From NCBI GenBank assembly GCA_963761825.1, contig CAVXIH010000010.1, positions 155,554 through 219,553 of the forward strand: 64,000 bases of DNA. The letters are read 5' to 3'. Of this stretch, positions 3,346 through 32,460 are shown one piece after another. The number at the start of each line of letters is the position of its first letter. Position 1 is the stretch's first letter. This DNA comes from an uncultured Acidobacteriota bacterium (GTDB taxonomy: Bacteria > Acidobacteriota > UBA6911). The position numbers and the translations under genes are program-made. Under the pieces are notes generated by a model. The model was not told the origin of the DNA. It saw only the letters and a program-made list of their open reading frames with translations, and ran no database searches.

Positions 3346-3487
3346 TTCTCACGGGCTTTCTACTGCGGCGGCGGATCCGGGCATGTCTACTGCGTTGCGC
3401 TCCGTCGGGCTCCTCGACGTACTGTCGAGTACGTCTGCGGGGCCCTCGGTCGCGCGCCTTGTATCCACGCCCGTCTGAGCCGCCTCG

Positions 3488-5317
3488 CTACGAAACCCCG
3501 TGAGAAATGCGGGCTAGACGTTTACTGATCGCCTCCAGCTGTTCGATGAGTTCCTTCGGCATTCTCGCGCCGAATTTGGGGTAGTGGGCCGATCTGACGT
3601 CGGCGATCTCGGCCTTCCAGCCGTCAATGTCCACTTTGAGCAGTTCGCGCATATCTTCGGCCGTGACGCCGGCAGGCGGCGCGATAGCATCGGCCGCCGG
3701 CACCCAGCCGATGGGTGTTTCAACAGCCGCTCCACTGCCGTCGCATCGCTCGAATACCCATTGAAGCACTCGGCTGTTCTCCCCATACCCCGGCCAGAGC
3801 CACTTTCCTTCTTTGGTTTTTTGGAACCAGTTGACGAAGAAAAATCTGGGCTGTGATGCGACCGGAGTTTTTTCGCCCATCCTGATCCAATGTCCGAAAT
3901 AGTCTCCCATGTGATAGCCGCAGAATGGCAGCATGGCAAAGGGATCCCGGCGCACAGACCCGGCCTTGAGATCCAGGGCCGCAGCGGTCACTTCACTGCC
4001 CACGATAGATCCCATAAACACGCCGTGATTCCAGTCGAAAGCTTGCGTCACAAGAGGGATCGTGGAGGGACGGCGGCCGCCGAACAGAAAAGCGTCGATG
4101 GGAACCCCCGCCGGATCTTCCCATTCAGGAGCGATGGCCGGGCATTGCGCTGCAGGCGCTGTAAAACGCGCGTTAGGGTGGGCTGCAGGGGGCTGATCCT
4201 TATTCGTCTTGTCCGCAATCCAGGGCTTGCCTTTCCAGTCGATAAGCTTGCCCGGAGCGTCGTATCCGATCCCCTCCCACCAGACATCGTTGTCTTCGGT
4301 CAGCGCGACATTCGTAAAGATGGAATTACGCTCGATCGAGCGCATGGCGTTCGGATTCGAACCCACGGAAGTGCCGGGAGCCACTCCAAAGAAACCCGCC
4401 TCGGGATTGATTGCGTAAAGCCTGCCATCCTTGCCGGGCTTCATCCACGCAATATCGTCCCCGATGGTCTCGACTTTCCATCCCGGAATAGTCGGGACCA
4501 GCATGGCCAGGTTTGTTTTGCCGCATGCGGAAGGGAATGCGGCGGCGACGTATTTTACTTTGCCTTCCGGATTTGTGAGTTTAAGGATCAGCATGTGTTC
4601 CGCCATCCAACCTTCGTCTCTGGCTATAACGGATGCAATGCGCAGGGCGAGGCATTTTTTGCCGAGCAGGGCATTTCCTCCATAACCGGAGCCGTAGGAC
4701 CAGATGGTTTTCTCTTCGGGAAAGTGCGCGATATATTTCTTGTCCAGTGGCGCGCAGGGCCATTGGCCGGCGTCATCCTGGCATGAGAGCAGCGGTTTGC
4801 CGACCGAATGCAGGCAGGGAACAAACTCGCCGTTTTTTCCGAGAACCTTAAGCACCCGGACGCCGACGCGCGTCATGATGTGCATATTGATGACGACATA
4901 TTCGGAGTCCGTAATCTGAACGCCGATCTTGGCGATGTGAGATCCCACAGGTCCCATGGAAAAAGGGATCACGTACATCGTGCGGCCTCTCATGGATCCC
5001 GTGTAGAGCTTTTTCAGAGTTTCCTTTAGTTCAAGGGGATCGATCCAGTTATTGGTCGGACCGGCATCCTCTTTGGATCTGGAGGCGATATAGGTGCGGT
5101 TCTCCACGCGAGCCACGTCGGAGGCGTCGGATCGGAATAGAAAAGAATTTGGACGATTGGGAAGGGGCGTTGCCAGGCCTTCCTGCAGCGCAGTTCTGAT
5201 GAGTGAGTCGTATTCGGCCTTGGTTCCGTTACACCAGACGATAGAATCCGGTTCGGTCATTTTGGCGATTTCGTCAACCCAAGCCAGAAGCTTGGCGTTA
5301 TCGGTTGGAACTGTCAT
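3488..5317 (-). CDS. pckG: Phosphoenolpyruvate carboxykinase (GTP)
   Basis: Hallmark [12 protein letters not shown] kinase-1a motif and GDDIAWM motif. Start taken at MTVPTDN. Confidence 0.9.
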
Positions 5318-10997: not shown

Positions 10998-13075
10998 TTA
11001 TGCTTGTCCTAGCTTTTTATTCGACTGGAGCACGTCTGCGACATGTTTCATGCCGAGATCTTCCAGCGTTTTTCTCTTGGGATAGCCTGTTTTGGAATCC
11101 CAGCCTTCAATCTGATAAAAGGCGGTCTTCCATTGTTCGACGCCCTTGTCATCAAGATACAGTTCCCGGCAGTCGACCCAGTCCCACTTGGAACCGTCGT
11201 AGACCGGCAGCGTGGTCCCGAAGTTGGCCATGGATGCGCCCCGTTTGTACATATACCCTGAAAACTTTTCGTTTTCCCGGGTCCTGCCCTGCATTACGAA
11301 GATAGCCCTCTTCAGATTCCAGGCTCTGCGCCCGATTTCGATGCCATCCAGAAAAGTTTGGTTTCTCCCTGTGACGGCGTTGAGGAAACGGGGCTCCGCT
11401 TCCGGTGTCGCTCCCTTTCCGTCGGGATTGGACGGGATTGAAATAGTTGCCCATCGCCCAATCGCAAAAGAGCGCCGATTCCTTATAGTATGTTGCATAA
11501 TGCTGGTGCCAGGCGACGAACTTGGCTTTGTGGTCGGAGTAGATGCCGGTTTTATACGCCTGCTCCCCCTGCCAGCTGTAATCGAACATGAAGGGATCGT
11601 CGCTGTAGGGAGGACTCGCGGAGGCCAGCAATTTGACATATTGCTCGCAGGACATCAGCTTGGTGGGGCCAAGCTGCATGTCATGGTTGTTGATGTCTCT
11701 GGAATCCATCAGGTTGCCATAGGCCCACTCCACCGTCGGCATAGTCCAGTGATCCATGTATCCCCATGCGGGCAAACGCAGGATGCTGTTCAGGTCGCTG
11801 ATTCTTCCGATTTTTTCGGCGAAGCGGACGATCCCGTCGGCGAGCAAATCTCCTATCCCGATGCGCTTGGCGATTGCCAGCGCAAATATTTCGGCAAATT
11901 CCACTTTTTCATACTGATCCATCGGCAGTGGATGGGTGTCTACCTTTTTCCCCGGACCGATGACGCCCATGTCATACAGTTTCTTGACATACCACCCGGC
12001 GCCGGTATTCGCCGGGCATATCGATCCTATTTCAGTGCCCGGCAGTGCCGGGAAACTTGCGGCTCCCATGAAGCAGAGGTCGGAAGCATTCAATCCGAGC
12101 TTCTGGACCGCATCGCTTGCTTTCCACATGTCCGATGTCGGCGTGCGTTTGTATGGAGGAGAAGGAAGACTATACCAAACCATTTCGGTGCAGCTGTCCG
12201 AATCCACGCCCTGAATCTGGCTCCTGCTGTGGCATCCGCGATTGCAGCCCATGCAGCAGGAAACTCCCGGCTTTATATCCCTGCCGGGGCCGCGCTGGCC
12301 GCTCATAGGGAATGTGGCCTCAAACCACTCCCGTGCTTCCAGCACTGCCTTGGGATTGGCTATCTTGATGCTGCCGGTGCCGACGACCGCGATGGCCTTC
12401 AGGTTTTTGGATCCGAAAACGCCGCCGAATCCTCCCTGGCCTGCGCCGGATCCTCCGGCATGAACGAGGGAGGCGATACGGGATTTGTTTTCACCGGCCG
12501 GGCCGATAGTCACGATGGCGGGGCGCTGCGTGGAATATTTGTTTCCCAGTTTCTGCCACTCGGAGCCATATCGGACGGGAGCCTTTGTGCTCTCCATCTT
12601 CCAGATTTCTTCCTGGGTTTCCCAAACGTTGAGTCCCCACAAGGGGCCGGCATCTTCAATCGTGACTATTGTCGTCAACGATATTGATATAGACGGGTGA
12701 TTCCGATTTTCCCTGGACTACCACACCATCCCATCCGGCAAGCTTGAGCGCGGGTGCGAAACTGCCGCCGAAATTGCTGTGGCCGAACCAATTGATCGGC
12801 CAGGTCTGCGCAGCCAGACCGGAGACGCTGGTTCTTCCTGCAAATGCGAGTCCCGTGCCGGCCAGCGGCCCCGTCATCAATGCCACAATGTTTCTCGGAT
12901 CAAAGGCATCTTGAAGGTCCCAGCCGCCCGGAGCTACGCAGAGGTCCCAGAAAAGGGCGGTTCCTGTTCCGTGCCCGCCGCCATAGGCTTCATATTTTGC
13001 TGAATCCAGAGCACTGATTTGTCTGGTTGTCAGATTGATAAGAAGTATCTTGCCTGCAAATCCCGGTGTTCCCAT
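10998..13075 (-). pseudogene. Aldehyde:ferredoxin oxidoreductase (tungsten AOR family, YdhV-like) split into three frames, with frameshifts near 12656-12680 and 11400-11435
   Basis: The N-terminus FAGKILLINLTT...YGGGHGTGT sits in ORF 12656..13075. The middle with CDWAMG is in 11152..12678. The C-terminus AWNLKRA...GWD..TG.P...LEDLG is in 10998..11639. Confidence 0.7.
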
Positions 13076-13104: not shown

Positions 13105-13863
13105 TTAGTGCCCGGAAATATTCGGCTTTGCTTCCGGACTTGCGCCGGGAGGAGCTTTGGGAGGCGTCGGCGGCGCCAGATTCACGTCATAACCGCTGAT
13201 ATCGGCTTGCGCCGGCATTTCCGCGACCAGCTTCAATGCGCCCATCGGGCAAGTGGTAACGCAAGCCTGTTTGCCGGCAGGGCCGCCCTTTTTGCTGAAA
13301 TAGGGCGTGTGCACGCACAGATCGCATTTGGTCGTTTTCTGTGTCGCTGGATTCCAGATCGGGCGGTGCGGATGGTGCGGACAGGCTTTAACGCAGGACT
13401 GACAGCCGATGCATTTTTCGGCCGTGATCATGCGCACGTTGCCGTTCTCCGCGCTGACATGGCAGGCGCCTGTCGGGCAGCTTCTTACGCACAGCGGGTC
13501 GGGACATTGCCTGCATACGGCGATCTGGATGTCATAGGGATAGCGCGTGAGGACGGAGCGGCTGACCTGAATTCGCGACAATGAAGTGCTGGTCTCTCCG
13601 TCGTGGACCAGGGAACAGGCAAGCATGCAGCTCAGGCACCCCGCGCAGCGGCGGCTGTCGTACACCAGATATCCGGTCGATTTTTCATAGGGATTTTTGG
13701 GCGCTTCGGCGGCCGTCATGGCCACCGCCGCATCCGGTGTAAAGGCGGTTAGAGCTCCGCCCGCAAGGACGGTTCCGCTGCCGATAACAAAATCGCGTCT
13801 GGAAAAATTCTTCTTTTTCTGGGTAGTCTTCTCTCCGGCCATGGATAATACCTCCATCCCCAA
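13105..13863 (-). CDS. Tat-exported 4x[4Fe-4S] ferredoxin-type subunit (DmsB/YdhX-like), partner of the AOR
   Basis: Twin-arginine signal RRDFVIGSG and four Cys clusters (CAGCLSC.., CRQCPDPLC.., CIGCQSC.., CDLC..CVTTCP). Confidence 0.75.
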   Translation of the reverse strand: MGMEVLSMAGEKTTQKKKNFSRRDFVIGSGTVLAGGALTAFTPDAAVAMTAAEAPKNPYEKSTGYLVYDSRRCAGCLSCMLACSLVHDGETSTSLSRIQVSRSVLTRYPYDIQIAVCRQCPDPLCVRSCPTGACHVSAENGNVRMITAEKCIGCQSCVKACPHHPHRPIWNPATQKTTKCDLCVHTPYFSKKGGPAGKQACVTTCPMGALKLVAEMPAQADISGYDVNLAPPTPPKAPPGASPEAKPNISGH

Positions 13864-16122: not shown

Positions 16123-17361
16123 TTGATATATACTTGGCCTGCAAGTGAAGCGATTAAGCCAAAGCCAGGAGTGGGAAATTTGGATCGACCAGACATAGTA
16201 CCTGTGACAGATGCCAGAACCTTGCGGCAGTTTATCCGGCTTCCGTGGAAGGTTTATCGCGAGGATCCTTTTTGGGTTCCGCCTCTGATCGTCGACATGC
16301 AGAAGGTGCTCGATAAAACCAAGTATCCCTTTTTCGATCACTCCTGCGCGGATTTATTTATTGCCGTGCGGCATGGCGAGGTGGTCGGTCGCATCGCGGC
16401 CATCCTGAACAACAATCACAATCGCTACCACAACGAAAGCACCGCCTTTTTCGGCTTCTTCGAATCGATTCCCGACCAGGACGTCGCCTCGGCGCTGCTT
16501 GATCGTGCCGCCCAGTGGGCACGGGATCGTGGCATGCATCAATTGCGCGGGCCGATGAATTACTCGACCAATGAAACCGTCGGGACCCTCATTGAAGGAT
16601 TTGATTCCTGCCCCTGCCTCATGATGCCTCACAATCCGCGCTATTATCCCGAGCTGATTGAAAAAGCCGGGTTTGACAAAGCGATGGACCTCTATGCCTG
16701 GTGGTTGCTGACCGAAAAAGGGTTGAATCCCAAAATTATTCGAGTGGGCGAGATGGTTTTGAAGGAGGAAGGAATACGGATTCGTACCATCGACATGAAA
16801 AAGTTTTGGGATGAAGTTGAAGTTCTCAAAAGAATCTATAACGATGCATGGAGCACCAACTGGGGATTTGTGCCCATGACGGATGCCGAATTCGGGCACA
16901 TGGCCAAAGATCTGAAAACGATCGTGGATCCGCGCGTGGTCCTGATCGCGGAAAAAAACGGGGAGCCGGTCGCATTCTCGCTAGCTCTGCCCGATTTCAA
17001 CCAGGCGTTGATAAAGATCAATGGAAGGCTTCTGCCGTTTGGCCTTCCCAAGCTGATCTATTATGGCCGCCATATCCGGCAGGTCCGCGTGCTGGCTCTG
17101 GGAATCGCAAAGAAGGTGCAGAACTGGGGCGGTCTCGGTGCCGCGCTTTATTACGAATCTTTCCGCCGCGGCGTGGCCGCGGGATATCAAAGCTGCGAGT
17201 TTTCCTGGACACTGGAAAACAACGACCTGATCAATCGAAGCATGCGGCTCTTCGGCGCTGAGATTTATAAGCGCTACCGCATATATCAAAAAGCGCTGCC
17301 GACTTTTTCCAGTTCCTCTGCCAGTACATCGACCGCGGTCCGTATTTCCTCTTCGGTGTGA
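16123..17361 (+). CDS. GNAT/FemAB-like N-acyltransferase, a candidate bacterial ceramide synthase (bCerS-like). An alternative TTG start at 16180 follows an AGGAG box.
   Basis: Acyltransferase-like fold signature. Gene context with spt, ACP, acyl-ACP synthetase and a CerR-like reductase. Confidence 0.5.
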   Translation: MIYTWPASEAIKPKPGVGNLDRPDIVPVTDARTLRQFIRLPWKVYREDPFWVPPLIVDMQKVLDKTKYPFFDHSCADLFIAVRHGEVVGRIAAILNNNHNRYHNESTAFFGFFESIPDQDVASALLDRAAQWARDRGMHQLRGPMNYSTNETVGTLIEGFDSCPCLMMPHNPRYYPELIEKAGFDKAMDLYAWWLLTEKGLNPKIIRVGEMVLKEEGIRIRTIDMKKFWDEVEVLKRIYNDAWSTNWGFVPMTDAEFGHMAKDLKTIVDPRVVLIAEKNGEPVAFSLALPDFNQALIKINGRLLPFGLPKLIYYGRHIRQVRVLALGIAKKVQNWGGLGAALYYESFRRGVAAGYQSCEFSWTLENNDLINRSMRLFGAEIYKRYRIYQKALPTFSSSSASTSTAVRISSSV

Positions 17362-18821
17362 GTCGCGCTGATAAAAAACCTCAGCCTGGCGGCATTTTCC
17401 TCGACTGCAGGATGGACGATCGGCTGGACATTAATGCGCCGGGCAGCCATCGCGTGACTCACCTGCATGCTTTGATTCGAGTTGCCGATGATGGCAGGGA
17501 TGACGGCCGCGCCCGCAGACAATCCCGTATTGATTCCCTTGCTGCGGGCAAGGTCGAGAAAAAGTTTCGCTCGCCGGCGCAGCCGTTCGACGATTTCCGG
17601 GTGGCGCTGCATGAGCTCCAGAGATTTCAGCGCAGCGGCCGCATTCGGGGCGGGCATTCCCACAGAGTAGAGAAATCCCGGTGTCGTGTACTTAAGATAG
17701 TGCACAAGCTGCCTGCTGCCCGCGATGTAGCCGCCGCAGCTGGCAAAGGACTTGGACAGCGTCCCCATCCAGAGGTCAACGTCCTGAGGATCGATCCCGG
17801 GATAATGGTGGGCGATACCGCGTCCCGAAGGGCCCAGCACTCCTATGGAGTGTGCCTCGTCGACTATCAGGTTGCATCGAAACCGTTTCTTCAATTCGAT
17901 CAGGCCGGGCAGGTCACAGATATCGCCATCCATCGAAAAAAGCCCTTCAGTACAAATAAGGACTCTCCGGTATTGGCTGCGATACTGCGCCAGCGTCTGT
18001 TCAAGTTCCGTCAGATCGCCGTGTGAAAACGATCGCCGTTTCGCGCCGGATAAATATATTCCCTGAATGATGCTGTCGTGACAAAGAGCATCGTGCAGGA
18101 TCAGGTCATTCCTATCGAACAGGTGGCCGATGGTTGTGACGTTGGTGGCGTGGCCGCTGACAAAAACCACCGCATCCTCCACGCCGATATGCTGCGCGAG
18201 CCCCTGTTCGAGTTCCCGATGAATGGGGCGCTCCCCGGAAACCAGACGGCTGGCCGATACGGATGTTCCGAAACGGTCGGTGGCGTCCTTGGCGGCAGCG
18301 TTGACTTCGGGGTGTCCTGAAAATCCAAGATAGTTGTAGCTTGAAAAATTGAGCATCTCGACGCCATCGATGACGCTCCGGTTTCTTGCGGTCCCGTCAT
18401 GGGCGCGGAAATAGGGATTCTTCAGCCCGATCCGCTCCATTTCCTGAAGCCGCCGTTCGAGGTTTTTAACTTCGGGAAAATCCGCTATATTCCAGCACTC
18501 GGTGGCTGGCGGCGTTGCTTTTTCCGTTGCCGGGTTTTGCTTCGGATCCTGTATTTCACCGGGCGCCGCCTGCTCTGACGGGGACAATCTGCGAACAAGA
18601 TTCAGAAGATCACCCACGCTGCCGAGAGCGGCAACTTCTTCGTCCCTTATGCGTATCGAGAAGTCTTCCTCCAGAAGGCCTATCACCTCCATCACCGCCA
18701 CGGAATCCAGGCCGAGTTCTGAAATCTTTGTTTCCGTGTCAATGTTCCCGAGTTCCTTCAGGCTGATGTTATAAACAGCAGCCTTGAGAACGTGTATCAG
18801 TTCCTGATCCGTGCTTTTCAT
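17286..18821 (-). CDS. spt: Acyl carrier protein fused to a serine palmitoyltransferase-like alpha-oxoamine synthase
   Basis: N-terminal ACP motif GLDSVAVME. PLP-lysine motif GTLSKSF.SCGGY of the KBL/AONS/SPT family. Confidence 0.8.
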   Translation of the reverse strand: MKSTDQELIHVLKAAVYNISLKELGNIDTETKISELGLDSVAVMEVIGLLEEDFSIRIRDEEVAALGSVGDLLNLVRRLSPSEQAAPGEIQDPKQNPATEKATPPATECWNIADFPEVKNLERRLQEMERIGLKNPYFRAHDGTARNRSVIDGVEMLNFSSYNYLGFSGHPEVNAAAKDATDRFGTSVSASRLVSGERPIHRELEQGLAQHIGVEDAVVFVSGHATNVTTIGHLFDRNDLILHDALCHDSIIQGIYLSGAKRRSFSHGDLTELEQTLAQYRSQYRRVLICTEGLFSMDGDICDLPGLIELKKRFRCNLIVDEAHSIGVLGPSGRGIAHHYPGIDPQDVDLWMGTLSKSFASCGGYIAGSRQLVHYLKYTTPGFLYSVGMPAPNAAAALKSLELMQRHPEIVERLRRRAKLFLDLARSKGINTGLSAGAAVIPAIIGNSNQSMQVSHAMAARRINVQPIVHPAVEENAARLRFFISATHTEEEIRTAVDVLAEELEKVGSAF

Positions 18822-18918
18822 TATTGGAACGCTCTTCTTTGAAAAACCTGCCGCGCACAGGCGCCTGCATCGGCAGCAACGAAAATGGAGAATAGAAAGA
18901 CAGCATGCTGTGGTTCAG

Positions 18919-20640
18919 TCAGCTGAGGACCATGCCTTCTGCCGGAGAGGATTCTGTTACGCTGCCCGGGAATCCGAGCTGGCCCTCTTCAAACAGAGCC
19001 TTGGTTTGCCTGCGCTGCAGTTTGCCGCTGGAAGTTTTCGGAATAGATCCACGCCCGACAAGCACGACCTTGTGCACCGCAAGGCCGAGCGCAGATCGCA
19101 CCTGATTGCCGATTACCAGCGCCAGTTCTTCACTATTCGTCATGGTGGTTTCCGCAATGATTACAAGCTTCTCGGTGGAATCCCCATTGACCGAGAATGC
19201 CACTACACTGCCTTTGCGAATGCCCGCGATTTCTTCGACAATCCATTCGATTGCCTGCGGAGGATAATTGCGACCATTGATAATGACCAGATCTTTCTGC
19301 CTCCCGGAAACATACAGATCGCCGTTGAGGATAAAGCCGAGATCGCCGGTATGGAGCCAGCCTCCCTGCAACAGTTGGCGCGAAGCTTCCGGATTTTGAA
19401 AATATCCAGGAGTAACACTCGGTCCGCGGAAGACAATTTCACCCACCTGGCCTTCCGGAAGCGGTTTGCCTGTGTTGTTCAGGATCCTGATTTCGTGGCC
19501 CGGGAAAGTGCGCCCGCAGGAGACCAGCTCAAATTTCCTCTTCGGATCCGTTACTTCTTCGTCGGAGCCGATGGGACGCGCTATGCTCCTGGTCTCATAG
19601 GCGTGGCGGTCGATTACCAGCTTTTGCATAGGTTTATGCAAATGGTCGAAAGCGATCGCAAGCGTTGCTTCCGCCATCCCATAGCACGGCAGGACCGCAT
19701 TCGGTTTGAGCCCCAGGGGCGCAAAGGCGGCAATAAAGCTTTCCATCGTTTTGGGGTTGATCGGTTCCGCGCCGCAGCCGAGGACGCGCAGACAGGATAA
19801 ATCCGGATTAATGCGAGACGTCTTGGGCGCTCGCTTCGCAGCAAGTTCAAAAGCGAAATTTGGTCCGAAGGTGATCGTTGCGCGATATTTATGGACCGTC
19901 TCCATCCATACGCCGGGATGCTTTACGAACGCAATTGTCGGAATGAATACTACCGGAATTTGCGCGACCATCGTTGCGATCACAAATCCAATGAGACCCA
20001 TATCATGATAGAGGGGAAGCCAGCTTACGGCGCGATCGGTATCCGGGTGAATTTCGAGACTCTTGATGGTTGCCTTTGCGTTGGCAATGAGATTTCTGTG
20101 TGTGACGATGACTCCTCTCGGCGCCGAGGTGGATCCCGACGTGAATTGGAGAAAGCAGGGCTCGTCCGGCCTTGTCCCTGGCTCGTTCAGCGTCAGGTCC
20201 CCCATTTGCTGCAGGGATTCAATGTCCAGAATGCTTTGTAGCGTGGGCACGCGGGAAAGAACAGGCTGAAGCAAAGGAATGAGTTCTTTGGTGGTGAGCA
20301 GCGCTTTTGCGCCGGAGACACGCAAAATGCCAGCCGCTCTGTCGATATAATTATCCAGTCGGCCAAGTGCCAGGGGAGGGTACATAGGAACGGGCATGAC
20401 TCCCATGCTGACCGCCCCAAGGAAAGATAGAACAAAATCTTCCGGGGCGTTCAAAACCAGGGCAAGACGATCCCCTTTCGTCAAGCCGAGTGTTTGAAGG
20501 CACGCACCGAGCCTCTTAGCCTCCCTGCAAGCCTCCGAATAGGACCAGTCGGCGGGCGTGAGGTCGTTGTCAAGGAATGTATAGCCTTTATGCTCTATGT
20601 GCGCAATCGCATCACACGCAGCATTCAGCGTCTCTTCCAT
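18919..20640 (-). CDS. Fatty acyl-AMP ligase / acyl-ACP synthetase (adenylate-forming)
   Basis: 573 aa, ANL superfamily, with a FAAL-like N-terminus. Confidence 0.75.
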   Translation of the reverse strand: MEETLNAACDAIAHIEHKGYTFLDNDLTPADWSYSEACREAKRLGACLQTLGLTKGDRLALVLNAPEDFVLSFLGAVSMGVMPVPMYPPLALGRLDNYIDRAAGILRVSGAKALLTTKELIPLLQPVLSRVPTLQSILDIESLQQMGDLTLNEPGTRPDEPCFLQFTSGSTSAPRGVIVTHRNLIANAKATIKSLEIHPDTDRAVSWLPLYHDMGLIGFVIATMVAQIPVVFIPTIAFVKHPGVWMETVHKYRATITFGPNFAFELAAKRAPKTSRINPDLSCLRVLGCGAEPINPKTMESFIAAFAPLGLKPNAVLPCYGMAEATLAIAFDHLHKPMQKLVIDRHAYETRSIARPIGSDEEVTDPKRKFELVSCGRTFPGHEIRILNNTGKPLPEGQVGEIVFRGPSVTPGYFQNPEASRQLLQGGWLHTGDLGFILNGDLYVSGRQKDLVIINGRNYPPQAIEWIVEEIAGIRKGSVVAFSVNGDSTEKLVIIAETTMTNSEELALVIGNQVRSALGLAVHKVVLVGRGSIPKTSSGKLQRRQTKALFEEGQLGFPGSVTESSPAEGMVLS

Positions 20641-20834
20641 ATCCTCCTCGTCCCGTCAGGGCGCGTTGGATTGCAGGTTCCCTGCAAGGGCAGGCATATG
20701 AAAACCTTAATCGCCCCTGGATCCAATCCCGGCAACCTTTGTTATCACGCTATCTTGATTTGCTGGTCGAACATAGCCTGTTTTGCGCAGACTTTCAATC
20801 AGTTTTCCCAGGGGATAGCGCCTATCATTGCCAG

Positions 20835-21836
20835 CTATAGCCATCCTCGATTCTGGTACCAACGAACTGTTTCGTTTATTCCCCTGGCCAGGTCTGTCGC
20901 AGGGCTGAAACCCAGCGCGGCCAACGCCTTGGATGAATCGCATATCCAGGATGTCTGGAGCAGTTCCCGGACCTTTTGGCTGTTCAGTGTTGCCGGCCGG
21001 CCAGTGACTTTCGCCCAGAGATCTCCCGCGCCGCCTATTGCTTCAGCAAGCCATTGAGGAAAGGAGATCTGCCGATAGTGCTTTCCCAGAGCCTGCGCTA
21101 TCGCGCGTCCGATGTCCTCCCAGGTATAGATCTCCGGGCGGGAGACAAAATAGATCGATCCTGAAGGCGTGTCGCAGTTGCCTGCCTGGATGCAGACAGA
21201 GGCCAAATCATGGACGTGAATCAGGCTGAATCGACGGATCAAGCGTCCCGGCGTGAACAGGCAGCCCCGCTTGATCATGCGGAATGCAAGAAGCGTTTCT
21301 GTGTCATACGGGCCATACACCGCCGAGGGTCGAAGAATCGTGACAGGGAAGGCGTGTGAAAATTGCAGGACTTCCTGTTCAGAAAGAAGCTTGCTCTCTC
21401 CATACCAGGAAATTGGATTTGGCTTGTCCTCTTCGTTCAGCCCCCGGTTGCCCGTGCCGGGTCCTGCGGCAGCCAGACTGCTCATGTGCACAAATCGTCT
21501 CAAATCAGGATTCGTTTCTGCCAGCACTTCCAGAAGAAGGCGAGTCCCTGCCTGATTGACCCGCACATAGTGCTCACGCCGCGCAGCTTTGATCAGTCCG
21601 GCCAGATGATAAACGGTTTGAACTCCGCGCACGGCTTCCCGGATGGAATCCCGGTCGTTCATATCTCCAATTACGAGGCGCACATGCAGTTTTTGAAGCG
21701 CATGGGTATCGCTTGTGTTTCTCACGAGGCATGTAACCTCGTGTCCTCTCTGCAACAGTGCTTCGACAAGATTTCGCCCCACGAAGCCTGTTCCGCCGGT
21801 GACAAGCACACTCCCGTTTGAATTGTCTGTCTGCAT
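20835..21836 (-). CDS. NAD(P)-dependent epimerase/dehydratase-family reductase, a candidate 3-ketosphinganine reductase (CerR-like)
   Basis: VTGGTGFVG Rossmann motif. Start taken at MQTDNSN. Confidence 0.65.
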   Translation of the reverse strand: MQTDNSNGSVLVTGGTGFVGRNLVEALLQRGHEVTCLVRNTSDTHALQKLHVRLVIGDMNDRDSIREAVRGVQTVYHLAGLIKAARREHYVRVNQAGTRLLLEVLAETNPDLRRFVHMSSLAAAGPGTGNRGLNEEDKPNPISWYGESKLLSEQEVLQFSHAFPVTILRPSAVYGPYDTETLLAFRMIKRGCLFTPGRLIRRFSLIHVHDLASVCIQAGNCDTPSGSIYFVSRPEIYTWEDIGRAIAQALGKHYRQISFPQWLAEAIGGAGDLWAKVTGRPATLNSQKVRELLQTSWICDSSKALAALGFSPATDLARGINETVRWYQNRGWL

Positions 21837-22101
21837 TATTCCGTTTCTTCTGACTGAGGTTTGAAGCCGCCCCCGACACGCTATCGTTTTATACAATGGA
21901 TCATAGGAACGACGCAAGCAAGCGCTGCTCTTCATGCGCACCTTCCTCACTGCAAACAAAAACATGTGGGTCGGGGCTCTTTATTTCAACCCCGACGCAT
22001 TGCGACTCCAAACAGATGTATCAAAGTTTTGAGACATTTGAAGCTCCGACCCACATATTTTACTGGTTTGTGATGATGGAGTTGCCGCCTTCGAAAATCA
22101 A

Positions 22102-24235
22102 TTAAAGCAGCAGGACGGAAAGCAGTGTTGCGGGAATCAACCAATAGGCTGTTCCCGCCAATCCCGCGAGGGGTGCCAAGACCAGGCTTGCGAGAACCGA
22201 TCCCATGCATCCGCCGATCAAATCTGCGGCATACAGCGGGGTGATCACTTTCCCTTGATCGCTCACGGCATACAGGCCGGCAAACGCGAATACTCCGGAC
22301 ACGAAGAAACCTGTCAGCGCCAGCAGTCCCAGGATTTCCAGAAGGCCTGCTTCGCCGCCGGAATTTATTTCCAGGCCAATAGCCGCACTTAGCCCTGCAA
22401 ATCCCGTAAACAGCGCAATCCCGAATCCTTTGGAGATACGATGTTGCATCCGAGCGAAGGCAAATGCTCCCAGGGCCAATCCGCCCATGAAGCCTGTGAG
22501 TAGTATCCCAATATCCTGGAAAAGAATGCCGTGCTTGGTCTGATAGTGCAGAAGAAGAATCGTCTCCAATACCATGCCTGCAAATCCCGCCATTCCCGTT
22601 AGCACTGTGCGTTTTATGGACCACGATGAGCGCATCAGCAGCAGGAAGGGCAGACTGAGAACAACCAGGATGAAGGTTTTGCGACCGCCGCTCAATTCGG
22701 GAAATGAAAAATCCCAGAGTATTGAGGAGGGGACGAATTTGGAAAGCCAGATCAGAATCGTGTACTGATAGCAGATGGGCCGGGTATCGGTATTGACCGG
22801 GGCGGTGCCGGATTCGAGAATCCGGGAGATCTCGCGAAATCGGTCGTTGGTATAGATATATCGGAGAAACTTCGCCGAGATAATTCTGGCCCGGATCCCT
22901 CTGTTTTCCAGCCGGGCAACTTGAACGAAAGGGTCCTTTGGCAAAGGATCCATAGATCCAATCACAACATTCGTGCTGCCCGGAATGAAAACAACTTCCG
23001 GAAAGACCGATCTGGCTGCCCTATAGATGCTGACCATTCTGCGCGTAAGCTGTGGAGTCCAGAAGTTTTCCGACGACTGAAGGCTGAATGCGACAATGCC
23101 CTGTGCGTTCAGTTTCGCATGGCATTGTCGAAAGAATTCCCGGGTATAAAAGCGATTTGTCTGTCCGGACGTCGGCTCCGGCATGCCCACCAAAATAAGG
23201 TCATATTTAGGCGCCCGATTGAGGAACCGGCGCGGGTCGTCATAGATAATCCGAACATTGGCGGCGCGAAGGGAGTTTTGTATGTCCAACGGGAGGTGTT
23301 TGGCAACAATGCGGATCAGAGCGGGATTCTGCTCCACATAATCCACCGACTCAGGAGAGTGCAACAGGACTTCGCGAACGGTCCCTTCAATGCCCCCGCC
23401 GAGCACCAGAACCTTTTTGGGATTTGGATGCTGTAAGGCTGCCGGATGGACAAACTCTTCAGCCCGGGTGCCTTCGCTGTCAAACAAAAGGGCGTCGTTT
23501 TCGAATACAGATGTCTGGCCATCCCGGGAAAGAACCGTAATTCTTGAATAGGGAGTATCCCTTGTCTCCACAAGATTCCGGTGGGTCCAGGATGTCATGA
23601 GCCGGTCGAGCGGGGAAGACTTCCAGGCAAGTGCTATCAAAATGCCGATAGCAACCATGGCGGTAAGGCGGAGCCAGCGCGAGCGGCTTCGGCGAAAATT
23701 CAGCAACGACGATCCGGCTGCAACCCCCGCACACAGCAGGGCGATAAAGAAATTCTGACAGCCGAATTTTAAGAAATAGCGTGGCGCAGATTCCTCCTGC
23801 CAATCCCCCCAGGCTTTCGATGCCATAGGCTGTTGCCAGCGACTTTGTCCCTGCCATATACGCCTTGGCCGTCCACTGAAACAGCAGACCAAGAAGCAGT
23901 CCCGCAGGCAGGAGAGAAACACACACAACGCCAATCTGCGTGTGCAGCGGAAGATATCCGCCCGGCACATCGGAAAAGAGAAGGCGGATGGAACGGATGA
24001 AGGCTACATCAACAGGAATGCTGATGGACAATAGCAGAAAAAGAAATTGGATGCTGGAAGAGGACGGAGATTTGGTTTTACGACGCAGCATGGTGCCGCA
24101 GGCGCTGCAAAGCAGCCAGACCCCCAGGGCAAGCGTGTAGATCAACTCAACGCCATAAAAGGCAACGCTGAGTTCCCGGAGCAGCACAGCCTGCGCCAGA
24201 ATGGAGACAAATCCGACGGCGAATAGATATCCCAC
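22102..24235 (-). pseudogene. Spermidine-synthase-like aminopropyltransferase domain flanked by N- and C-terminal polytopic membrane domains. Frameshift near 23740-23760.
   Basis: The N-terminal TM domain is in ORF 23480..24235 and the rest in 22102..23970. LVLGGGIEGTVREVL is SpdS-like. Confidence 0.6.
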
Positions 24236-24237
24236 AT

Positions 24238-25758
24238 TTACCTGAATTGCGATTCACTGAAAACATCTGCCTGAAAGACCTGGAATTTTGCGTTCCGCTT
24301 CCAGCATCCCGCTTGCAGCCCCGCTTTCATACAGAGGTTGTCGAGCATTTCCGCCCGATCCCAATGATTTTCCGTCGCTACCTGTGGAAGGAATACTGCG
24401 GATGTCCCCGCAGCGGACATCAGAACACCATCGCGGCCGACGACGATTTCGTTGGAGGAAGCGATGGCCTTCATGGGAGTCAGAACAGAGATTTCAATTT
24501 CAAGATTTTTCAGTTCATTGATTTCGACAGGCGCAAATCTGGAGTCGCCGAATGCCGACTGCAAAGCCATCGATCCCACCGTTTTACCAAGCGCAGTATC
24601 TCCCGGGATGTGTCCGATGCAGCCCCGAAGCTGTCCGGCCTTTCTGAGCGTAACAAACGCGCCTTGCGGAAAATCCATTCGTGCCGGAAGATTCCGCGCC
24701 AGCGGGAGCGTTTGTGTCGTCAGATACCAGAGGATGGATTCCCTCGCGAATGCGAGCAGAATTTTCTTTTCTGATTTCTGCAGCGGCGTTGCCCGGGAGG
24801 GCGCGGTGGCGCGATTCAAGACAGTCGTATTACTCGGAGTCTTTCCCGGAGCCAGAATGACCGCTCCGTACCCGACAGTGCGCGCAGCGTCATAGCCTAC
24901 CAGGACATCCCCGGAGTTTGCGTAGCCTGCGACCACGGCGCGCGTGGCGCCCAGCGCCTTGGCTGCCGCCATCCCTGCAAGGATTGCGGCTTCCCCGCAC
25001 GCTCTCGTTTCCAGATTAGGCAAGTCCAGAACACGCATCACGGAGGTGACCCGTGAAGGATCCAGGGCGGCAATGGTTGTGAGAGTCAGAGAATCCGCTT
25101 TTTCTGCATTCGTATTCGTCGGATAGTGGGACAAGTCCGAGCTGATCACGATCAACGCCCGCCGGCCCTTTAAAACCTTTCCCAGCGCCTCGCCGAAGCG
25201 CAGGCACATTTTGCTGTCCGGCGGATGGATGATAGCGGGGACAATCCGGGCATTCGGGAAAAGGGTTTGCACAAAAGGAAGCTGAACCTCGATGGAATGC
25301 TCTCTTGTATGAACCTCGCGGTTTCGATTGCAGTCCGTGCACTCGGCCAGCAGGGCGGAGGTGATCTCTTCATCAACCAGGCTGTTGCCCAGAGGAGTGC
25401 GAAAAGAACCATAGTTTCCCAGCGAAATCCCGCTGAAATTCCCTGTTGTGTGATTCACTCCCAGCAGCACAACGACGTCATACGTACGTCCAGCGACCTG
25501 ACGGTATGCGTCCGCACAAATCTGGCCGGAATATATATATCCGGCGTGAGGCACAATGAGGGCGAGCGGCTTCTCCATGGGAATTTCGACAGAATCCTGG
25601 AGATACTGCTGAATGGCAAGCTTCAGCTTCTGCGGATCGGCCGGGTAGAACTGGCCGGCAACCGCCGGCGGCCGTGTGTCGGCCGGCTTGGTGCCGGAGC
25701 CTGCAGATGAAGCCAGAATCACCAGGGCTGCAATGGCAAGAGCCAGGCTTCTTTTCAT
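24238..25758 (-). CDS. Memo1-like (AmmeMemoRadiSam protein B) fused to an AMMECR1 domain (protein A), with an N-terminal Sec-type signal peptide
   Basis: Signal MKRSLALAIAALVILASSA. Memo motif LIVPHAGYIYSG. AMMECR1 motif GQLRGCIGH. Confidence 0.75.
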   Translation of the reverse strand: MKRSLALAIAALVILASSAGSGTKPADTRPPAVAGQFYPADPQKLKLAIQQYLQDSVEIPMEKPLALIVPHAGYIYSGQICADAYRQVAGRTYDVVVLLGVNHTTGNFSGISLGNYGSFRTPLGNSLVDEEITSALLAECTDCNRNREVHTREHSIEVQLPFVQTLFPNARIVPAIIHPPDSKMCLRFGEALGKVLKGRRALIVISSDLSHYPTNTNAEKADSLTLTTIAALDPSRVTSVMRVLDLPNLETRACGEAAILAGMAAAKALGATRAVVAGYANSGDVLVGYDAARTVGYGAVILAPGKTPSNTTVLNRATAPSRATPLQKSEKKILLAFARESILWYLTTQTLPLARNLPARMDFPQGAFVTLRKAGQLRGCIGHIPGDTALGKTVGSMALQSAFGDSRFAPVEINELKNLEIEISVLTPMKAIASSNEIVVGRDGVLMSAAGTSAVFLPQVATENHWDRAEMLDNLCMKAGLQAGCWKRNAKFQVFQADVFSESQFR

Positions 25759-25852
25759 GGTTTTCCCCTTGAATATTGGATCCTTCGCATTTTTAGCCCG
25801 CATGTTTCACGATCTTTGTTTGGCAGGCAGGCTCGAACGCCAAAAACATATT

Positions 25853-27049
25853 TTAGGACCAGACACCTGCAATGGCTCTTCCGCAGAACTTGCAGTTCCC
25901 GCGCACAATATTCAGCTCCGCTATAAAAAAGGAGCTGCGTCGAATCACAACCTTCCCGCATTGGGGGCAGTATGTGTGATTGCCCGGATGGTCCGGCACA
26001 TTCCCGATATAGGCATAGCGAATGCCTTTGCTCATCGCGCAGTTCCGTGATCGCTCCAGTGTCGCCACCGGAGTGGGCGGGAGATGGAGGAGCTGATAAT
26101 CCGGGTGAAACCGCGTGAAATGAATCGGGACATCCGGCCCGATCTCTCCCATGATCCAATCTGCCAGTCCGGCCATCATTTTGTCTGAATCATTCAATGT
26201 CGGGACAACCAGATTGACGATTTCAAGGTGCACGCCGCTTTTGGCTATTTGCCGGATGCTGTTGAGAACCGGTCGAAGCTCCGCGCCGCATACATTGCGA
26301 TAAAAATCCTCGCTGTAACCCTTCAGGTCGATCTTAATCGCGTCCAGGATGCCGCACATTTCCTTCAGGGGTTCGGCGTTCATAAAGCCGCAGCTGATCA
26401 TCACGCAGCGCAGCTTCTGTTTTTTCGCCAACGCAGCGGTGTCGGCCAGATACTCCATAAACACGGTCGGTTCATTATAGGTAAAAGCTACGATAGGAGA
26501 TTGCCGCGCGGATGCCGATCCGACAATTGCGGCAGGCGCTACGAACGGCGTATCGAAATCCTCAGGCCGGGATTGAGAGATTTCCCAGTTCTGGCAGAAC
26601 TTGCAGCGCAACGGACAGCCCGAGGTCGCAAAGGAAAACGCATCGGAGCCTGGAAGGAAATGATAAAAAGGTTTCTTCTCGATCGGATCGATATGGATCG
26701 TTACTGGCCGGCCATAAACCAGGCTGCGCAACTCGCCGTTGACGTTCATGCGGGCGCGGCATTTTCCCCGCTCGCCCGGCTTGATGACGCAGGACTGGGC
26801 GCAGAGAAGGCATTTCACAATCGCATTTTTGCCGGCATGCGCCCCGACTTTAAGTTTTGATTCGGGCTTGTGGCATTGCATGCAGTCGATGCCGGGAGAT
26901 GCCGTGGAAATCCAATAGCGCGCTTTGGGCGCCGACCGGATTAAATCTCCTGTGCGGTCAAAAACCGCGGCTTGGGCAAACGCAAGGGAACTGCCGATTG
27001 TTGATCCGATTTTTGTTGCCGTAATCAGGAACTCACGTCGTGAAATCAT
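25853..27049 (-). CDS. AmmeMemoRadiSam-system radical SAM enzyme (PflA-like) with an N-terminal twin-arginine (Tat) signal extension
   Basis: SRREFLITATKIGSTIGSSLAFAQA Tat signal. CPLRCKFCQN radical SAM motif. The N-terminal C..C..C..GERGKC element is typical of this subfamily. Confidence 0.75.
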   Translation of the reverse strand: MISRREFLITATKIGSTIGSSLAFAQAAVFDRTGDLIRSAPKARYWISTASPGIDCMQCHKPESKLKVGAHAGKNAIVKCLLCAQSCVIKPGERGKCRARMNVNGELRSLVYGRPVTIHIDPIEKKPFYHFLPGSDAFSFATSGCPLRCKFCQNWEISQSRPEDFDTPFVAPAAIVGSASARQSPIVAFTYNEPTVFMEYLADTAALAKKQKLRCVMISCGFMNAEPLKEMCGILDAIKIDLKGYSEDFYRNVCGAELRPVLNSIRQIAKSGVHLEIVNLVVPTLNDSDKMMAGLADWIMGEIGPDVPIHFTRFHPDYQLLHLPPTPVATLERSRNCAMSKGIRYAYIGNVPDHPGNHTYCPQCGKVVIRRSSFFIAELNIVRGNCKFCGRAIAGVWS

Positions 27050-27407
27050 TCGTTCCTTCCCCTGCTACGATAATCCCCTTGTTGATGCGCTGTCAATCCT
27101 GCCTCCGCCTCTTGCGGTTGCTACGACCGTAGTCTTCATCAGGTCGGGGTCGGAATCGAAACGTTCAAGAACAAATCCAATAGCGATATCGACCCTGATA
27201 CCGGCCGCGACTCCGATGCTGAAATTTGCGATAAATGCTTCCGTTTACGTGCTTTTTCGGGTGATCCACGAATCGCGAGAAATTCAGGCGTGCTAATTGG
27301 TCGGACCATGATAAAATCACCCCGTTTTGCAGAGATGAGATGGAACTTCTGCGATATCGGATTCAGTTGGGTTTCATTTCTAATAGAGGAGCGGGGAGGA
27401 TAGCGCG

Positions 27408-27653
27408 ATGGTCGACGAAGATCTAAAATTACAAATTGAAAGGCTTAAGGCTGAGAACGAGGCTCTCAAGAGGTCCACTTCCAAAGGGCTTTCCATGAAA
27501 GTCAGTGAGAAAGGAGCCCTTTCGGTTTATGGTCTGGGCCGATTCCCTGTAACTCTTTATAAAGAGCAATGGCTTCGACTGCTTGATATGACTGAGGATA
27601 TTCGAGGATTCATCAAGCAGAACGAAAGCCAGCTGAGATCCAAAGGGCAGTAG
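27408..27653 (+). CDS. Small hypothetical protein (81 aa) with a coiled-coil N-terminus, divergent from the radical SAM gene
   Basis: GGAGG box 8 nt upstream of the ATG. No family recognised. Confidence 0.4.
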   Translation: MVDEDLKLQIERLKAENEALKRSTSKGLSMKVSEKGALSVYGLGRFPVTLYKEQWLRLLDMTEDIRGFIKQNESQLRSKGQ

Positions 27654-30691: not shown

Positions 30692-32460
30692 ATGGCAAAG
30701 CTTGATCCAACTAAACTTGCTGACTGGCAGATCGCATTTGAATGCGAAAAAGATATGAAGACAGTCCAGCAGCTTGCGGAAGGACTCGGAATCAAAGACA
30801 TGGAATTGATTCCCTATGGACATTATTATGGCAAGGTTGATTATCGAGCCATAATGGAGAGAGTAAAAGACAGACCGGACGGCAAATACATTGACGTTAC
30901 GGCGATCACCCCGACTCCTCTCGGGGAAGGCAAAAGCACTTCCACCATGGGCTTGGTTCAAGGCCTGGGAAAACGCGGAAAGAAAGTAACCGGCGCAATC
31001 CGTCAACCTTCCGGCGGACCGACCATGAACATCAAGGGAAGCGCGGCAGGTGGCGGCTTGGCGCAGTGCATTCCACTCACCCCGTTCTCACTTGGATTGA
31101 CCGGCGACATCAACGACATCATCAATGCGCACAACCTGGGAATGATCGCTCTCACTTCCAGAATGCAGCATGAATACATCAATGACGATGCCTTCCTGGC
31201 ATCCAAGAACCTGAAACGGCTGGATATCGATCACAGAAACGTTGAGATGAAGTGGGTTATCGATTTCTGCGCTCAAGCGCTCCGCAATATCACCATCGGC
31301 TATGGGCGGCAAGATGGATGGCTTCATGATGCAGTCCGGATTCGCCATTGCCGTAAGCTCCGAATTGATGGCGATTCTCGCTGTCGCCACCAGCCTCAAA
31401 GATATGCGTGAAAGAATCGGCAAAATGGTGGTTGCTTACAATAAAAAAGGCGATCCCGTCACGACAGCCGATCTTGAAGTGGATGGCGCCATGTGCGCAT
31501 GGATGGTCAATACTATCAATCCAAGCCTGCTGCAGACGATTGAAGGACAGCCCATTTTTGTTCACGCTGGACCGTTTGCCAATATCGCCATCGGTCAATC
31601 CTCCATCGTGGCGGATAAACTGGCCCTTAAGCTTGCGGATTATCACCTCACCGAAAGCGGATTCGGCGCCGACATCGGCTTCGAGAAATTCTGGAATCTC
31701 AAGTGCCGCTATTCCGGCCTGAAGCCGAATTGCGCCGTTGTGGTTGCCACTGTTCGCGCTCTCAAGAGCCATGGCGGCGGCCCCGCCGTTCCTCCGGGCA
31801 AAAAGCTGGATCCCGTTTACTCACAGGAAAACGTTGAGCTGGTGGAAAAAGGCTTGTGCAACCTTCTCAAACACATTGAGAACGTGAAGAAAGCCGGCAT
31901 CAACCCGGTCGTCTGCATCAACTCGTTCTACACGGACACAAAGGCCGAAATCGATTGCATCAAGAGAAACGTCGAAGCTATGGGCGCACGTTGCGCGGTT
32001 TCCGAACACTGGCTGAAGGGCGGCGACGGCGCGTTGGAGCTCTCCGATGCCGTCATTGATGCTTGCAACGAACCGAACAATTTCAAGTTCCTCTATGAAC
32101 TTGAAATGCCGCTCGGCAAGAGAATTGAAACTCATTGCCAAGGAAATCTATGGCGCAGATGGTGTAAGCTACACTCCGGCTGCCAAAGCCAAGCTCATCA
32201 AGATGGAAAAAGATCCTGAGCTTGCCAAACTCGGCACATGCATGGTCAAGACTCATCTCAGCCTTTCCCATGATCCCACCCTCAAAGGGGCACCCAAAGG
32301 CTGGACGTTGCCAATCCGCGACATCCTGACGTACAAGGGCGCGGGCTTTGTGGTTCCGGTTTCCGGGGATATCACCCTTATGCCGGGCACCGCATCGGAT
32401 CCTGCATACAGAAGAGTTGATGTAAATGTGGAAACCGGAAAAGTTACCGGTGTGTTCTAG
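30692..32460 (+). pseudogene. fhs: Formate--tetrahydrofolate ligase split over three frames, with frameshifts near 31290-31300 and 32125-32135
   Basis: [17 protein letters not shown]-loop in frame 1. GGKMDGF...[16 protein letters not shown] in frame 2. [11 protein letters not shown]...TGVF C-terminus in frame 3. Confidence 0.8.

Follow-up and report, generated by a model that had tools for sequence, protein, structure and literature searches.

We analysed a 64,000-nt stretch of DNA from an uncultured Acidobacteriota bacterium (UBA6911; assembly GCA_963761825.1, contig CAVXIH010000010.1, positions 155,554-219,553), hereafter the window, whose own positions serve as coordinates throughout. On its reverse strand, between 22102 and 27049, lie three adjacent genes: one for a 398-aa radical S-adenosylmethionine (SAM) enzyme of the AmmeMemoRadiSam type (25853..27049; henceforth rSAM), one for a fusion of Memo and AMMECR1 (506 aa from its second ATG, 24238..25758, within an open reading frame (ORF) that extends to 25803), and one for a 710-aa polytopic membrane protein (22102..24235), which is split into two frames in the window. 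An earlier note on this DNA had described the first two as a radical SAM protein with a twin-arginine translocation (Tat) signal next to a Memo-AMMECR1 fusion with a signal peptide, and this pairing is confirmed: both ORFs are present, the twin-arginine motif is kept in 74/77 homologues and a signal on the fusion in 70/71. That note overlooked the third component (22102-24235) and a CxxCH insert in rSAM. Taking the three genes together, we read 22102-27049(-) as a three-gene operon for an extracytoplasmic variant of AmmeMemoRadiSam, whose products would act jointly at the outer face of the membrane; from the sequence evidence we put the probability of this reading at roughly 65%.

rSAM and the fusion belong to the AmmeMemoRadiSam families expected of them, in agreement with the earlier assignment. 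rSAM scores 364.7 bits against TIGR04337 (cut-off 220) and also matches Pfam Radical_SAM (residues 142-291). The fusion, numbered by ORF 24238-25803, scores 246.3 bits against TIGR04336/Memo (cut-off 26; aa 44-316) and 167.1 bits against TIGR04335/AMMECR1 (cut-off 99; aa 348-515), with the corresponding Pfam matches; the Memo domain lies at ~24856-25674 and the AMMECR1 domain at ~24259-24762 (both on the reverse strand), and the relatives in the PDB are MEMO1 (3bcz) and PH0010/MM0484 (1vaj, 1zq7).

Conservation was assessed in two samples. The first comprises the 120 best database homologues of rSAM, which are 71-96% identical to the window protein. The second comes from a scan at one genome per species, which returned more than 590 loci with close rSAM relatives; the best 80 were examined (rSAM identity 49-80%, usually spanning residues 1-398), drawn from Acidobacteriota, Syntrophales, Ignavibacteria, KSB1, Calditrichota, Latescibacterota, Eisenbacteria, Anaeromyxobacter, Aminicenantes and Anaerolineae. 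N-terminus counts refer to the 77 homologues from these 80 loci in which the canonical Cys motif could be located, and residue invariance was counted on 62 homologues.

The radical SAM enzyme and its N-terminus

Three motifs in the body of rSAM are invariant: the radical SAM cluster motif C145-x3-C149-x2-C152 (CPLRCKFC; 26594..26617, reverse strand), the N-terminal motif C80-x2-C83-x3-C87...G-E-R-G-K-C97, and Y191-N-E-P, which we take to be the GGE-equivalent SAM-binding motif. The first two are also the conserved elements that the earlier note had pointed out (C..C..C/GERGKC and CPLRCKFC). The AlphaFold2 model is nearest to pyruvate formate-lyase (PFL)-activating enzyme (structural-alignment TM value 0.76; all such values are normalised to the PDB chain).

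The TIGR04337 match opens only at residue 74, and the ~70 ‘extra’ residues ahead of it fall into three parts: a signal of ~26-30 residues, a segment (residues 40-49, APKARYWIST) that is confidently folded and matches the canonical family N-terminus ‘MKEALFYEKL’, and an insert at about residues 47-73. The earlier note had described some 60 extra N-terminal residues with a Tat signal; a signal is indeed found there, but it takes up only the first ~26-30 residues. The segment at 40-49 corresponds to the canonical N-terminus, and the CxxCH insert is a separate element. That typical members lack the extension is correct, canonical proteins being ~330-350 aa long and starting ‘MKEALFYEKL...’ with no signal.

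The N-terminus reads MISRREFLITATKIGSTIGSSLAFAQAAVF, with S-R-R-E-F-L, a weakly hydrophobic core and A-F-A. As expected of a Tat signal, the twin-arginine motif S3-R-R-E-F-L8 is followed by a moderately hydrophobic h-region, ITATKIGSTIGSSLAFA, and we assign residues 1-26, MISRREFLITATKIGSTIGSSLAFA, to a Tat-type signal peptide (26972..27049, reverse strand). The three homologues without a twin-arginine motif upstream of the canonical Cys motif are truncated or frame-broken, R4 and R5 are invariant in the 62 sequences, and most of the 120 best homologues open M-[IL]-S-R-R-x-F-L. Residues 1-29 have a predicted local distance difference test score (pLDDT) below 50 and lie outside the fold in the AlphaFold2 model. 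The invariant Fe-S Cys motifs mark rSAM as a cofactor protein of the kind that is folded before export; Fe-S insertion takes place in the cytoplasm, and Tat carries folded, cofactor-loaded proteins.

When all six frames of the window were searched for ORF segments of 100 aa or longer with [ST]RRxF[LIVM] near the start codon, the only two hits were rSAM and an NrfC/DmsB-like Fe-S protein (13105-13863(-)). The latter is an NrfC/DmsB/TtrB-like four-cluster protein with a textbook Tat signal (KKKNFSRRDFVIGSG...), encoded beside an aldehyde-oxidoreductase-like ORF, and offers an example of a Tat substrate from the same genome. With exported Fe-S proteins of this kind (NrfC/DmsB/HybA) rSAM shares a twin-arginine signal on a protein that needs its Fe-S clusters before export; those proteins, however, are electron-transfer subunits.

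The insert (~27 aa, aa 47-73; 26831..26911, reverse strand) follows the canonical ‘ARYW’ N-terminus, precedes the canonical Cx2Cx3C, and contains C56-x2-C59-H60 and a downstream His. C56-M-Q-C59-H60 is invariant in the 62 close homologues. The insert is found in 64/77 Tat-type genome homologues and is absent from canonical forms; a Smithella/Syntrophaceae-like subclade retains the Tat signal and lacks the insert. The second His occurs in 65/65 inserts, in 51 of them exactly 7 residues before the first canonical Cys, and the insert is modelled at a pLDDT of ~66. A His directly after the second Cys is the signature of haem c attachment, and like a c-type cytochrome rSAM carries CxxCH in a polypeptide predicted to be exported; c-type cytochromes, however, are normally exported unfolded by Sec, whereas the signal of rSAM is of the Tat type, and we do not file rSAM among them. 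From its sequence, the CxxCH...H insert could be a haem c attachment site or another metal site or metal-binding knuckle, the latter kept alongside haem c in view of Tat export and of some extra Cys in Anaerolineae. A haem c motif on a Tat substrate would, if real, itself be unusual.

Partner proteins and spread of the module

The true start of the fusion is likely the second ATG, at 25758, which is preceded by AAGGGG and gives MKRSLALAIAALVILASSAGSG; the resulting 506 aa agree with the single polypeptide of about 500 aa with its own Sec-type signal that the earlier note had described. This predicted Sec-type signal peptide (25693..25758, reverse strand), a hydrophobic N-terminal segment, has no lipobox Cys in the window copy. 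In the 70 of 71 homologous fusions counted as carrying a signal, a basic residue and then a hydrophobic N-terminal segment (best 10-residue Kyte-Doolittle mean of at least 2.0) precede the Memo domain. Many of them have a lipobox Cys (e.g. AASC, AVAC, PAGC), and in Anaerolineae fusions (L078, L080) long Pro/Thr/Ser-rich linkers follow it, an arrangement typical of lipoproteins held outside the membrane. One of two rSAM paralogues at the Anaerolineae locus L080 has a lipobox Cys and a Pro/Thr-rich linker like these fusions.

Immediately beyond the fusion, a GTG-initiated ORF (23480-24235) starts right at the fusion stop codon and overlaps, in another frame, a 622-aa ORF (22102-23970). Removing one A from an AAAA run with one extra A (23767..23770, reverse strand) joins the two into 710 aa, and reading CTT AAA TTC GGC restores ...ATLFLKFGCQNFF..., in agreement with homologues, which are intact at 710 aa and up to 95% identical (P0121). 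The frameshift is probably an assembly error, given that other genes in the window are also frame-broken; a programmed frameshift was considered and judged unlikely, as relatives at 90-95% identity are intact and other window genes are broken too.

AlphaFold2 models the joined protein (pLDDT 87.7) as seven transmembrane (TM) helices (2-25, 30-49, 59-87, 97-127, 133-156, 161-175 and 186-204), a soluble domain at ~221-475, and six or seven further TM helices (~14 in total). In 62 sequences the loops on the N-terminal side carry 15.3 Lys and Arg residues against 3.6 on the side of the soluble domain, and in a wider set 15.5 against 2.9, with the same sign in 51/51 sequences from many phyla. By the positive-inside rule applied to the AlphaFold2 helices, the N-terminus is predicted to be cytoplasmic and the soluble domain periplasmic.

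This domain (22810..23574, reverse strand) has the spermidine synthase (SpdS) fold, a class I SAM-binding fold, with the key motifs GGGIEG, VEQN, DDPR and GMPEP; against the polyamine aminopropyltransferases 1uir, 3anx and 6bq2 its Foldseek TM values are 0.73-0.79. In the HMMER alignment to Thermus SpeE, Ile282 of GGGIEG stands at the D/E position of GxG(D/E)G, which is I/V/M/L in all aligned homologues, and IIDLTDP of Thermus SpeE, the stretch with the catalytic Asp residues of the D-(S/L)-(S/T)-D-P motif, aligns to LVGMPEP. The acidic residues that are kept are the Glu of ‘VEQN’ and the Asp of ‘DDPR’, which we read from the fold as binding ribose and adenine, and the nucleoside-binding residues are invariant. 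A true spermidine synthase or aminopropyltransferase is ruled out by these motif changes and by NCBIfam SpeE models that all score below cut-off. Conserved charged residues occur in or at the ends of TM helices (R20, E21, R81, E140, E557, D574, D671); these and a weak internal repeat both fit a core of the major facilitator superfamily (MFS) type, with 6+6 helices and a hairpin of TM7, domain and TM8, of which they give only a hint.

When ORFs of 110 aa or more around the loci were clustered all against all, only three conserved protein families emerged, present at 80, 75 and 64 loci. With few exceptions among the 80 loci, the fusion gene lies directly 3' of that for rSAM (49-95 nt downstream in the window, depending on the start codon used); the membrane gene, found in 64/80 loci, comes next after the fusion in almost all loci long enough to show it, and is absent from seven canonical loci without a Tat signal. 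Judged by this co-occurrence, the membrane protein is the third, obligatory component of the module. Metagenome loci retrieved with the distant Tat-type family member P0255 served as an independent test, and the seven canonical loci belong to this set. In two of its loci (L090, L093), from a distant lineage, the three components are all retained but arranged differently, with the fusion divergent and the membrane gene directly upstream of the rSAM gene, and the rSAM N-terminus has S-K-R-[DE]-F-L; in two others (L094, L095) the membrane gene is directly upstream of a Tat-type rSAM gene. The 1.5 kb flanking the cassette on each side were searched for ORFs of 25-130 aa, and no conserved small ORF or precursor peptide was found; the small-ORF clusters comprised only low-complexity noise and pieces of the Tat signal, and a reading along the lines of ribosomally synthesised and post-translationally modified peptides was dropped.

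The earlier note had suggested looking for the same exported architecture in related genomes, and the best 80 of the more than 590 loci show it in many lineages; it is thus not peculiar to the window. A family-wide survey of a library of 50%-identity representatives (E <=1e-30) returned 1459 proteins, and among the best 150, which were inspected, most are canonical at ~330-350 aa, while at least 35 representatives from several lineages have RR-type N-termini. Judged from these sequences, the window cassette is one member of a large unrecognised class and not singular.

Other architectures were seen in the course of this survey. Many family members in the range P0242-P0371 are fusions of 600-1150 aa or have a single N-terminal TM anchor, so that architectures are far more varied than the three-gene cassette. 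The Anaerolineae contig of L080 has two Tat-type rSAM paralogues (340-1609 and 3218-4520) flanking the fusion gene, of which one has the lipobox Cys, a linker of ~50 aa and no CxxCH, and the other has CxxCH and extra Cys/His (C..CH...YCH.PH). There is also a separate P0255-like lineage of Tat-signal rSAM proteins (SRRDFL; L082-L087, L109, L111), beside which no Memo, AMMECR1 or membrane gene was found in flanks of up to 6 kb on each side. Exported rSAM enzymes resembling PFL-activating enzyme may thus exist outside the AmmeMemoRadiSam context, to judge from these sequences.

An extracytoplasmic reading and its rivals

The module shares with canonical AmmeMemoRadiSam the three families above cut-off, the adjacency of their genes, the CX3CX2C and Cx2Cx3C...C motifs, and the C-terminal Cys pairs. 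It differs in the export signals on both proteins, the fusion of Memo to AMMECR1, the CxxCH insert and the extra membrane protein, whereas canonical systems have separate, signal-less Memo and AMMECR1 (as in L100 and L101, where the two are separate genes without signals) and an rSAM of ~330-350 aa with no signal. The literature searched assigns no biochemical function to the cassette.

For the membrane protein, the nearest functional parallel is, by analogy of architecture, a TM-anchored SpdS-like domain that works on exported substrates in the fungal enzyme NHMT (AN4663), in which an N-terminal 7TM block is followed by an SpdS-like domain of seven beta-strands and which methylates the N-terminal His of secreted lytic polysaccharide monooxygenases (PMC10349129). 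Ile in place of the D/E of GxG(D/E)G, the acid that selects decarboxylated SAM, was used to separate NHMT from spermidine synthases, and its 7TM domain was reported only in Pezizomycotina (PMC10349129). Our protein resembles it in architecture and motif, with a 7TM block, an SpdS-like domain and an aliphatic residue at the D/E position; NHMT differs in being eukaryotic, in having no second TM block and in having no link to rSAM, Memo or AMMECR1. PRK03612 (membrane-bound polyamine aminopropyltransferases) and NF037959 (fused MFS/spermidine synthase), which share the soluble fold, match weakly over the TM block and SpdS domain (120 and 24 bits; cut-offs 472 and 40). In contrast to both, the membrane protein has I/V for the acid that selects decarboxylated SAM, G-M-P-E-P for the Asp of D-x-x-D-P, and a second TM block after the domain. 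For the rSAM core, PFL-activating enzyme and the glycyl-radical activases provide the nearest solved structures and sequences, although scores are far below the family cut-offs and rSAM has extra N-terminal Cys motifs, a Cys-rich C-terminal tail and an export signal. In the locus neighbourhoods examined, no gene for a glycyl-radical enzyme lies near the cassette.

In the mechanism we propose, rSAM would be folded and loaded with Fe-S clusters in the cytoplasm and then exported by Tat, as its sequence and predicted structure suggest. The fusion would leave by Sec, to be lipid-anchored in many relatives, and the ~14-TM protein would display on the periplasmic face an SpdS-fold domain that keeps its nucleoside-binding residues and has a methyltransferase-type Ile for the aminopropyltransferase acid. 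On the outside of the cytoplasmic membrane, the three proteins would then work jointly on a substrate associated with the envelope. This substrate is probably a lipid of the membrane, an isoprenoid or a protein, and not a peptide encoded nearby. SAM might reach the outside bound to the Tat-exported enzyme or through the transporter-like TM core of the third protein, the second route being the one we favour, and the CxxCH...H insert beside the N-terminal Cys cluster might be the electron entry point, in place of cytoplasmic flavodoxin/ferredoxin. Anaerobes make up most of the host lineages, a lifestyle that would go well with an oxygen-labile enzyme being placed outside the cytoplasm. In its fullest form, periplasmic SAM-dependent radical chemistry in many, mostly anaerobic, phyla, with a redox centre bound covalently or tightly at CxxCH...H to reduce the enzyme and an MFS-like SAM exporter whose outward domain uses SAM or hands it over, this mechanism is tentative, and we would sooner expect some part of it to be wrong.

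Between the two implications that the earlier note had drawn, an anchored protein facing the cytoplasm or a novel chemistry in the envelope, the evidence favours a periplasmic location over a cytoplasm-facing anchor, given the signals on the fusions, the lipobox and Pro/Thr-rich linkers in Anaerolineae, and a membrane protein whose domain is predicted to lie outside. Several points weigh against an extracytoplasmic module. Localisation is drawn from motif conservation, hydropathy, AlphaFold2 helices and the positive-inside rule, and one locus (L096, 452-3248) pairs an rSAM of canonical length, with no RR, with a Memo-AMMECR1 fusion that has a lipoprotein signal. A-F-A is present in the window rSAM, but an A-x-A site is not conserved among homologues and the L080 paralogue has a lipobox instead, which leaves cleavage of the signal and anchoring by it as alternatives. 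The SpdS-like domain lacks the catalytic Asp residues and so may only bind a ligand; the repeat relating TM2-5 to TM10-13 is weak (hhalign local E = 0.003, probability 10%); and haem c attachment, which normally acts on unfolded apoproteins exported by Sec, fits poorly with Tat. Finally, neither a pool nor an exporter of SAM is known to us from the bacterial periplasm, nor is a low-potential reductant that could serve radical SAM clusters.

In a first rival reading rSAM is exported with no periplasmic supply of SAM, crossing the membrane with SAM already bound and using it either catalytically, with regeneration as in lysine 2,3-aminomutase, or once, leaving a stable radical or modification on a partner; the role of the membrane protein would be confined to substrate presentation or methylation, or to binding a nucleoside. 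Tat is established to move folded, cofactor-loaded proteins, the nearest solved relatives are PFL-activating enzymes, which generate a long-lived protein radical in a single turnover, and the SpdS fold has lost its catalytic Asp residues, all of which suit such a scheme. It leaves unexplained, however, why the transporter-like protein strictly accompanies the exported form and is missing from canonical loci; the invariant nucleoside-binding residues of the outward domain suggest that a SAM-like ligand is bound outside; and no glycyl-radical partner is encoded nearby. We regard it as unlikely, and as less plausible than the main reading.

Still less probable, in our judgement, is that the RR N-terminus is not a working export signal and rSAM remains cytoplasmic, for instance through a tether to the inner face or a chaperone like those of Tat proofreading, and hands its substrate to exported partners. 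SAM and low-potential reductants are, as is well established, cytoplasmic, and the pairing at L096 of an rSAM without a Tat signal with a signal-bearing Memo fusion would be natural under it; the HXS system, in which a radical SAM enzyme acts inside and its product is exported, supplies a precedent (PMC13128918). Against retention, no other reason is known why S/T-R-R-x-F-L and the h-region should be kept in so many phyla, an outward orientation is predicted for both partner proteins, CxxCH was acquired together with the signal, and the L080 paralogue, which combines a Tat motif with a lipobox Cys and a long linker rich in Pro/Thr, makes sense only outside. That the signal is an annotation artefact, with the true start downstream and the apparent signal untranslated or due to chance, was the refuting possibility raised in the earlier note; mis-called starts are frequent in general and the window has indel errors, yet we consider this barely credible. 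The RR motif and the whole N-terminus are conserved as protein across phyla, at 49-96% identity, from which we conclude that the start codon has been called correctly; query coverage among the 120 best homologues is 88-100%, and 100% for most of them; a Shine-Dalgarno-like GGAAGGA lies 6 nt 5' of the rSAM ATG; and no in-frame Met, Val or Leu start of comparable context immediately precedes the canonical domain.

Radical SAM enzymes depend on SAM, on the absence of oxygen and on an electron donor of very low potential, and are treated as strictly cytoplasmic; to our knowledge none is known as a Tat substrate. The literature searched contains no description of an exported radical SAM enzyme, of one as a Tat substrate or of this module, an earlier mention in Burroughs et al. 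2019 (JBC) being possible. A clade that spans phyla and combines a Tat signal, exported partners and a membrane protein with an outward SAM-fold domain challenges the cytoplasm-only rule, and implies that SAM and low-potential electrons enter the bacterial envelope by a route not yet recognised. If the proposed mechanism holds in its fullest form, the module would contain three firsts: a radical SAM enzyme located outside the cytoplasm, a SAM exporter from bacteria and a periplasmic SAM-dependent transferase. It would also point to an envelope substrate, lipid or protein, for the Memo and AMMECR1 families. Memo and AMMECR1 are conserved from archaea to humans and linked to human disease, and we know of no biochemical function for either. 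In the exported variant the substrate would sit at the outer face of the membrane, and a candidate membrane protein that handles substrate or cofactor narrows the search for what Memo and AMMECR1 do.

Neighbourhood and sequence quality

Upstream of the module, a sigma-70-like promoter match (TTGACA-18-TATCGT; 27067..27096, reverse strand) lies 18 nt 5' of the rSAM start. It is a consensus match only, and with 2 sites found against 4.2 expected in shuffles it is weak evidence. The 840-nt gap between the module and folD contains an 81-aa ORF with a coiled-coil-like N-terminus (27408-27653(+)), which has no NCBIfam match and is not conserved in related loci.

Frame disruptions occur elsewhere in the window. 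The formate-tetrahydrofolate ligase gene (30692-32219(+)) is broken over at least two frames, with Pfam positions 3-184 falling in one ORF, 182-452 in another and the remainder missing, and an aldehyde ferredoxin oxidoreductase-like ORF (11152-12678(-)) is without the first ~120 profile positions. The window thus seems to carry several indel errors, and apparent pseudogenes in it are not trustworthy.

Directly downstream of the module, in the 16123-21965 region, lie lipid-type genes on the same strand: a reductase (epimerase) resembling short-chain dehydrogenases/reductases and 3-beta-hydroxysteroid dehydrogenases (20835-21965(-)), a fatty acyl-AMP ligase (FAAL; 18919-20640(-)), and an acyl carrier protein (ACP) fused to an alpha-oxoamine synthase (17286-18821(-)) whose serine palmitoyltransferase/BioF-like score is below cut-off. 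A 412-aa ORF without family assignment lies on the opposite strand (16123-17361(+)). The lipid-type set resembles genes for bacterial sphingolipid/ceramide synthesis. Because only close acidobacterial relatives (L002, L003, L081) share the epimerase, FAAL and ACP-oxoamine-synthase genes, we treat these as local synteny and not as parts of the module.

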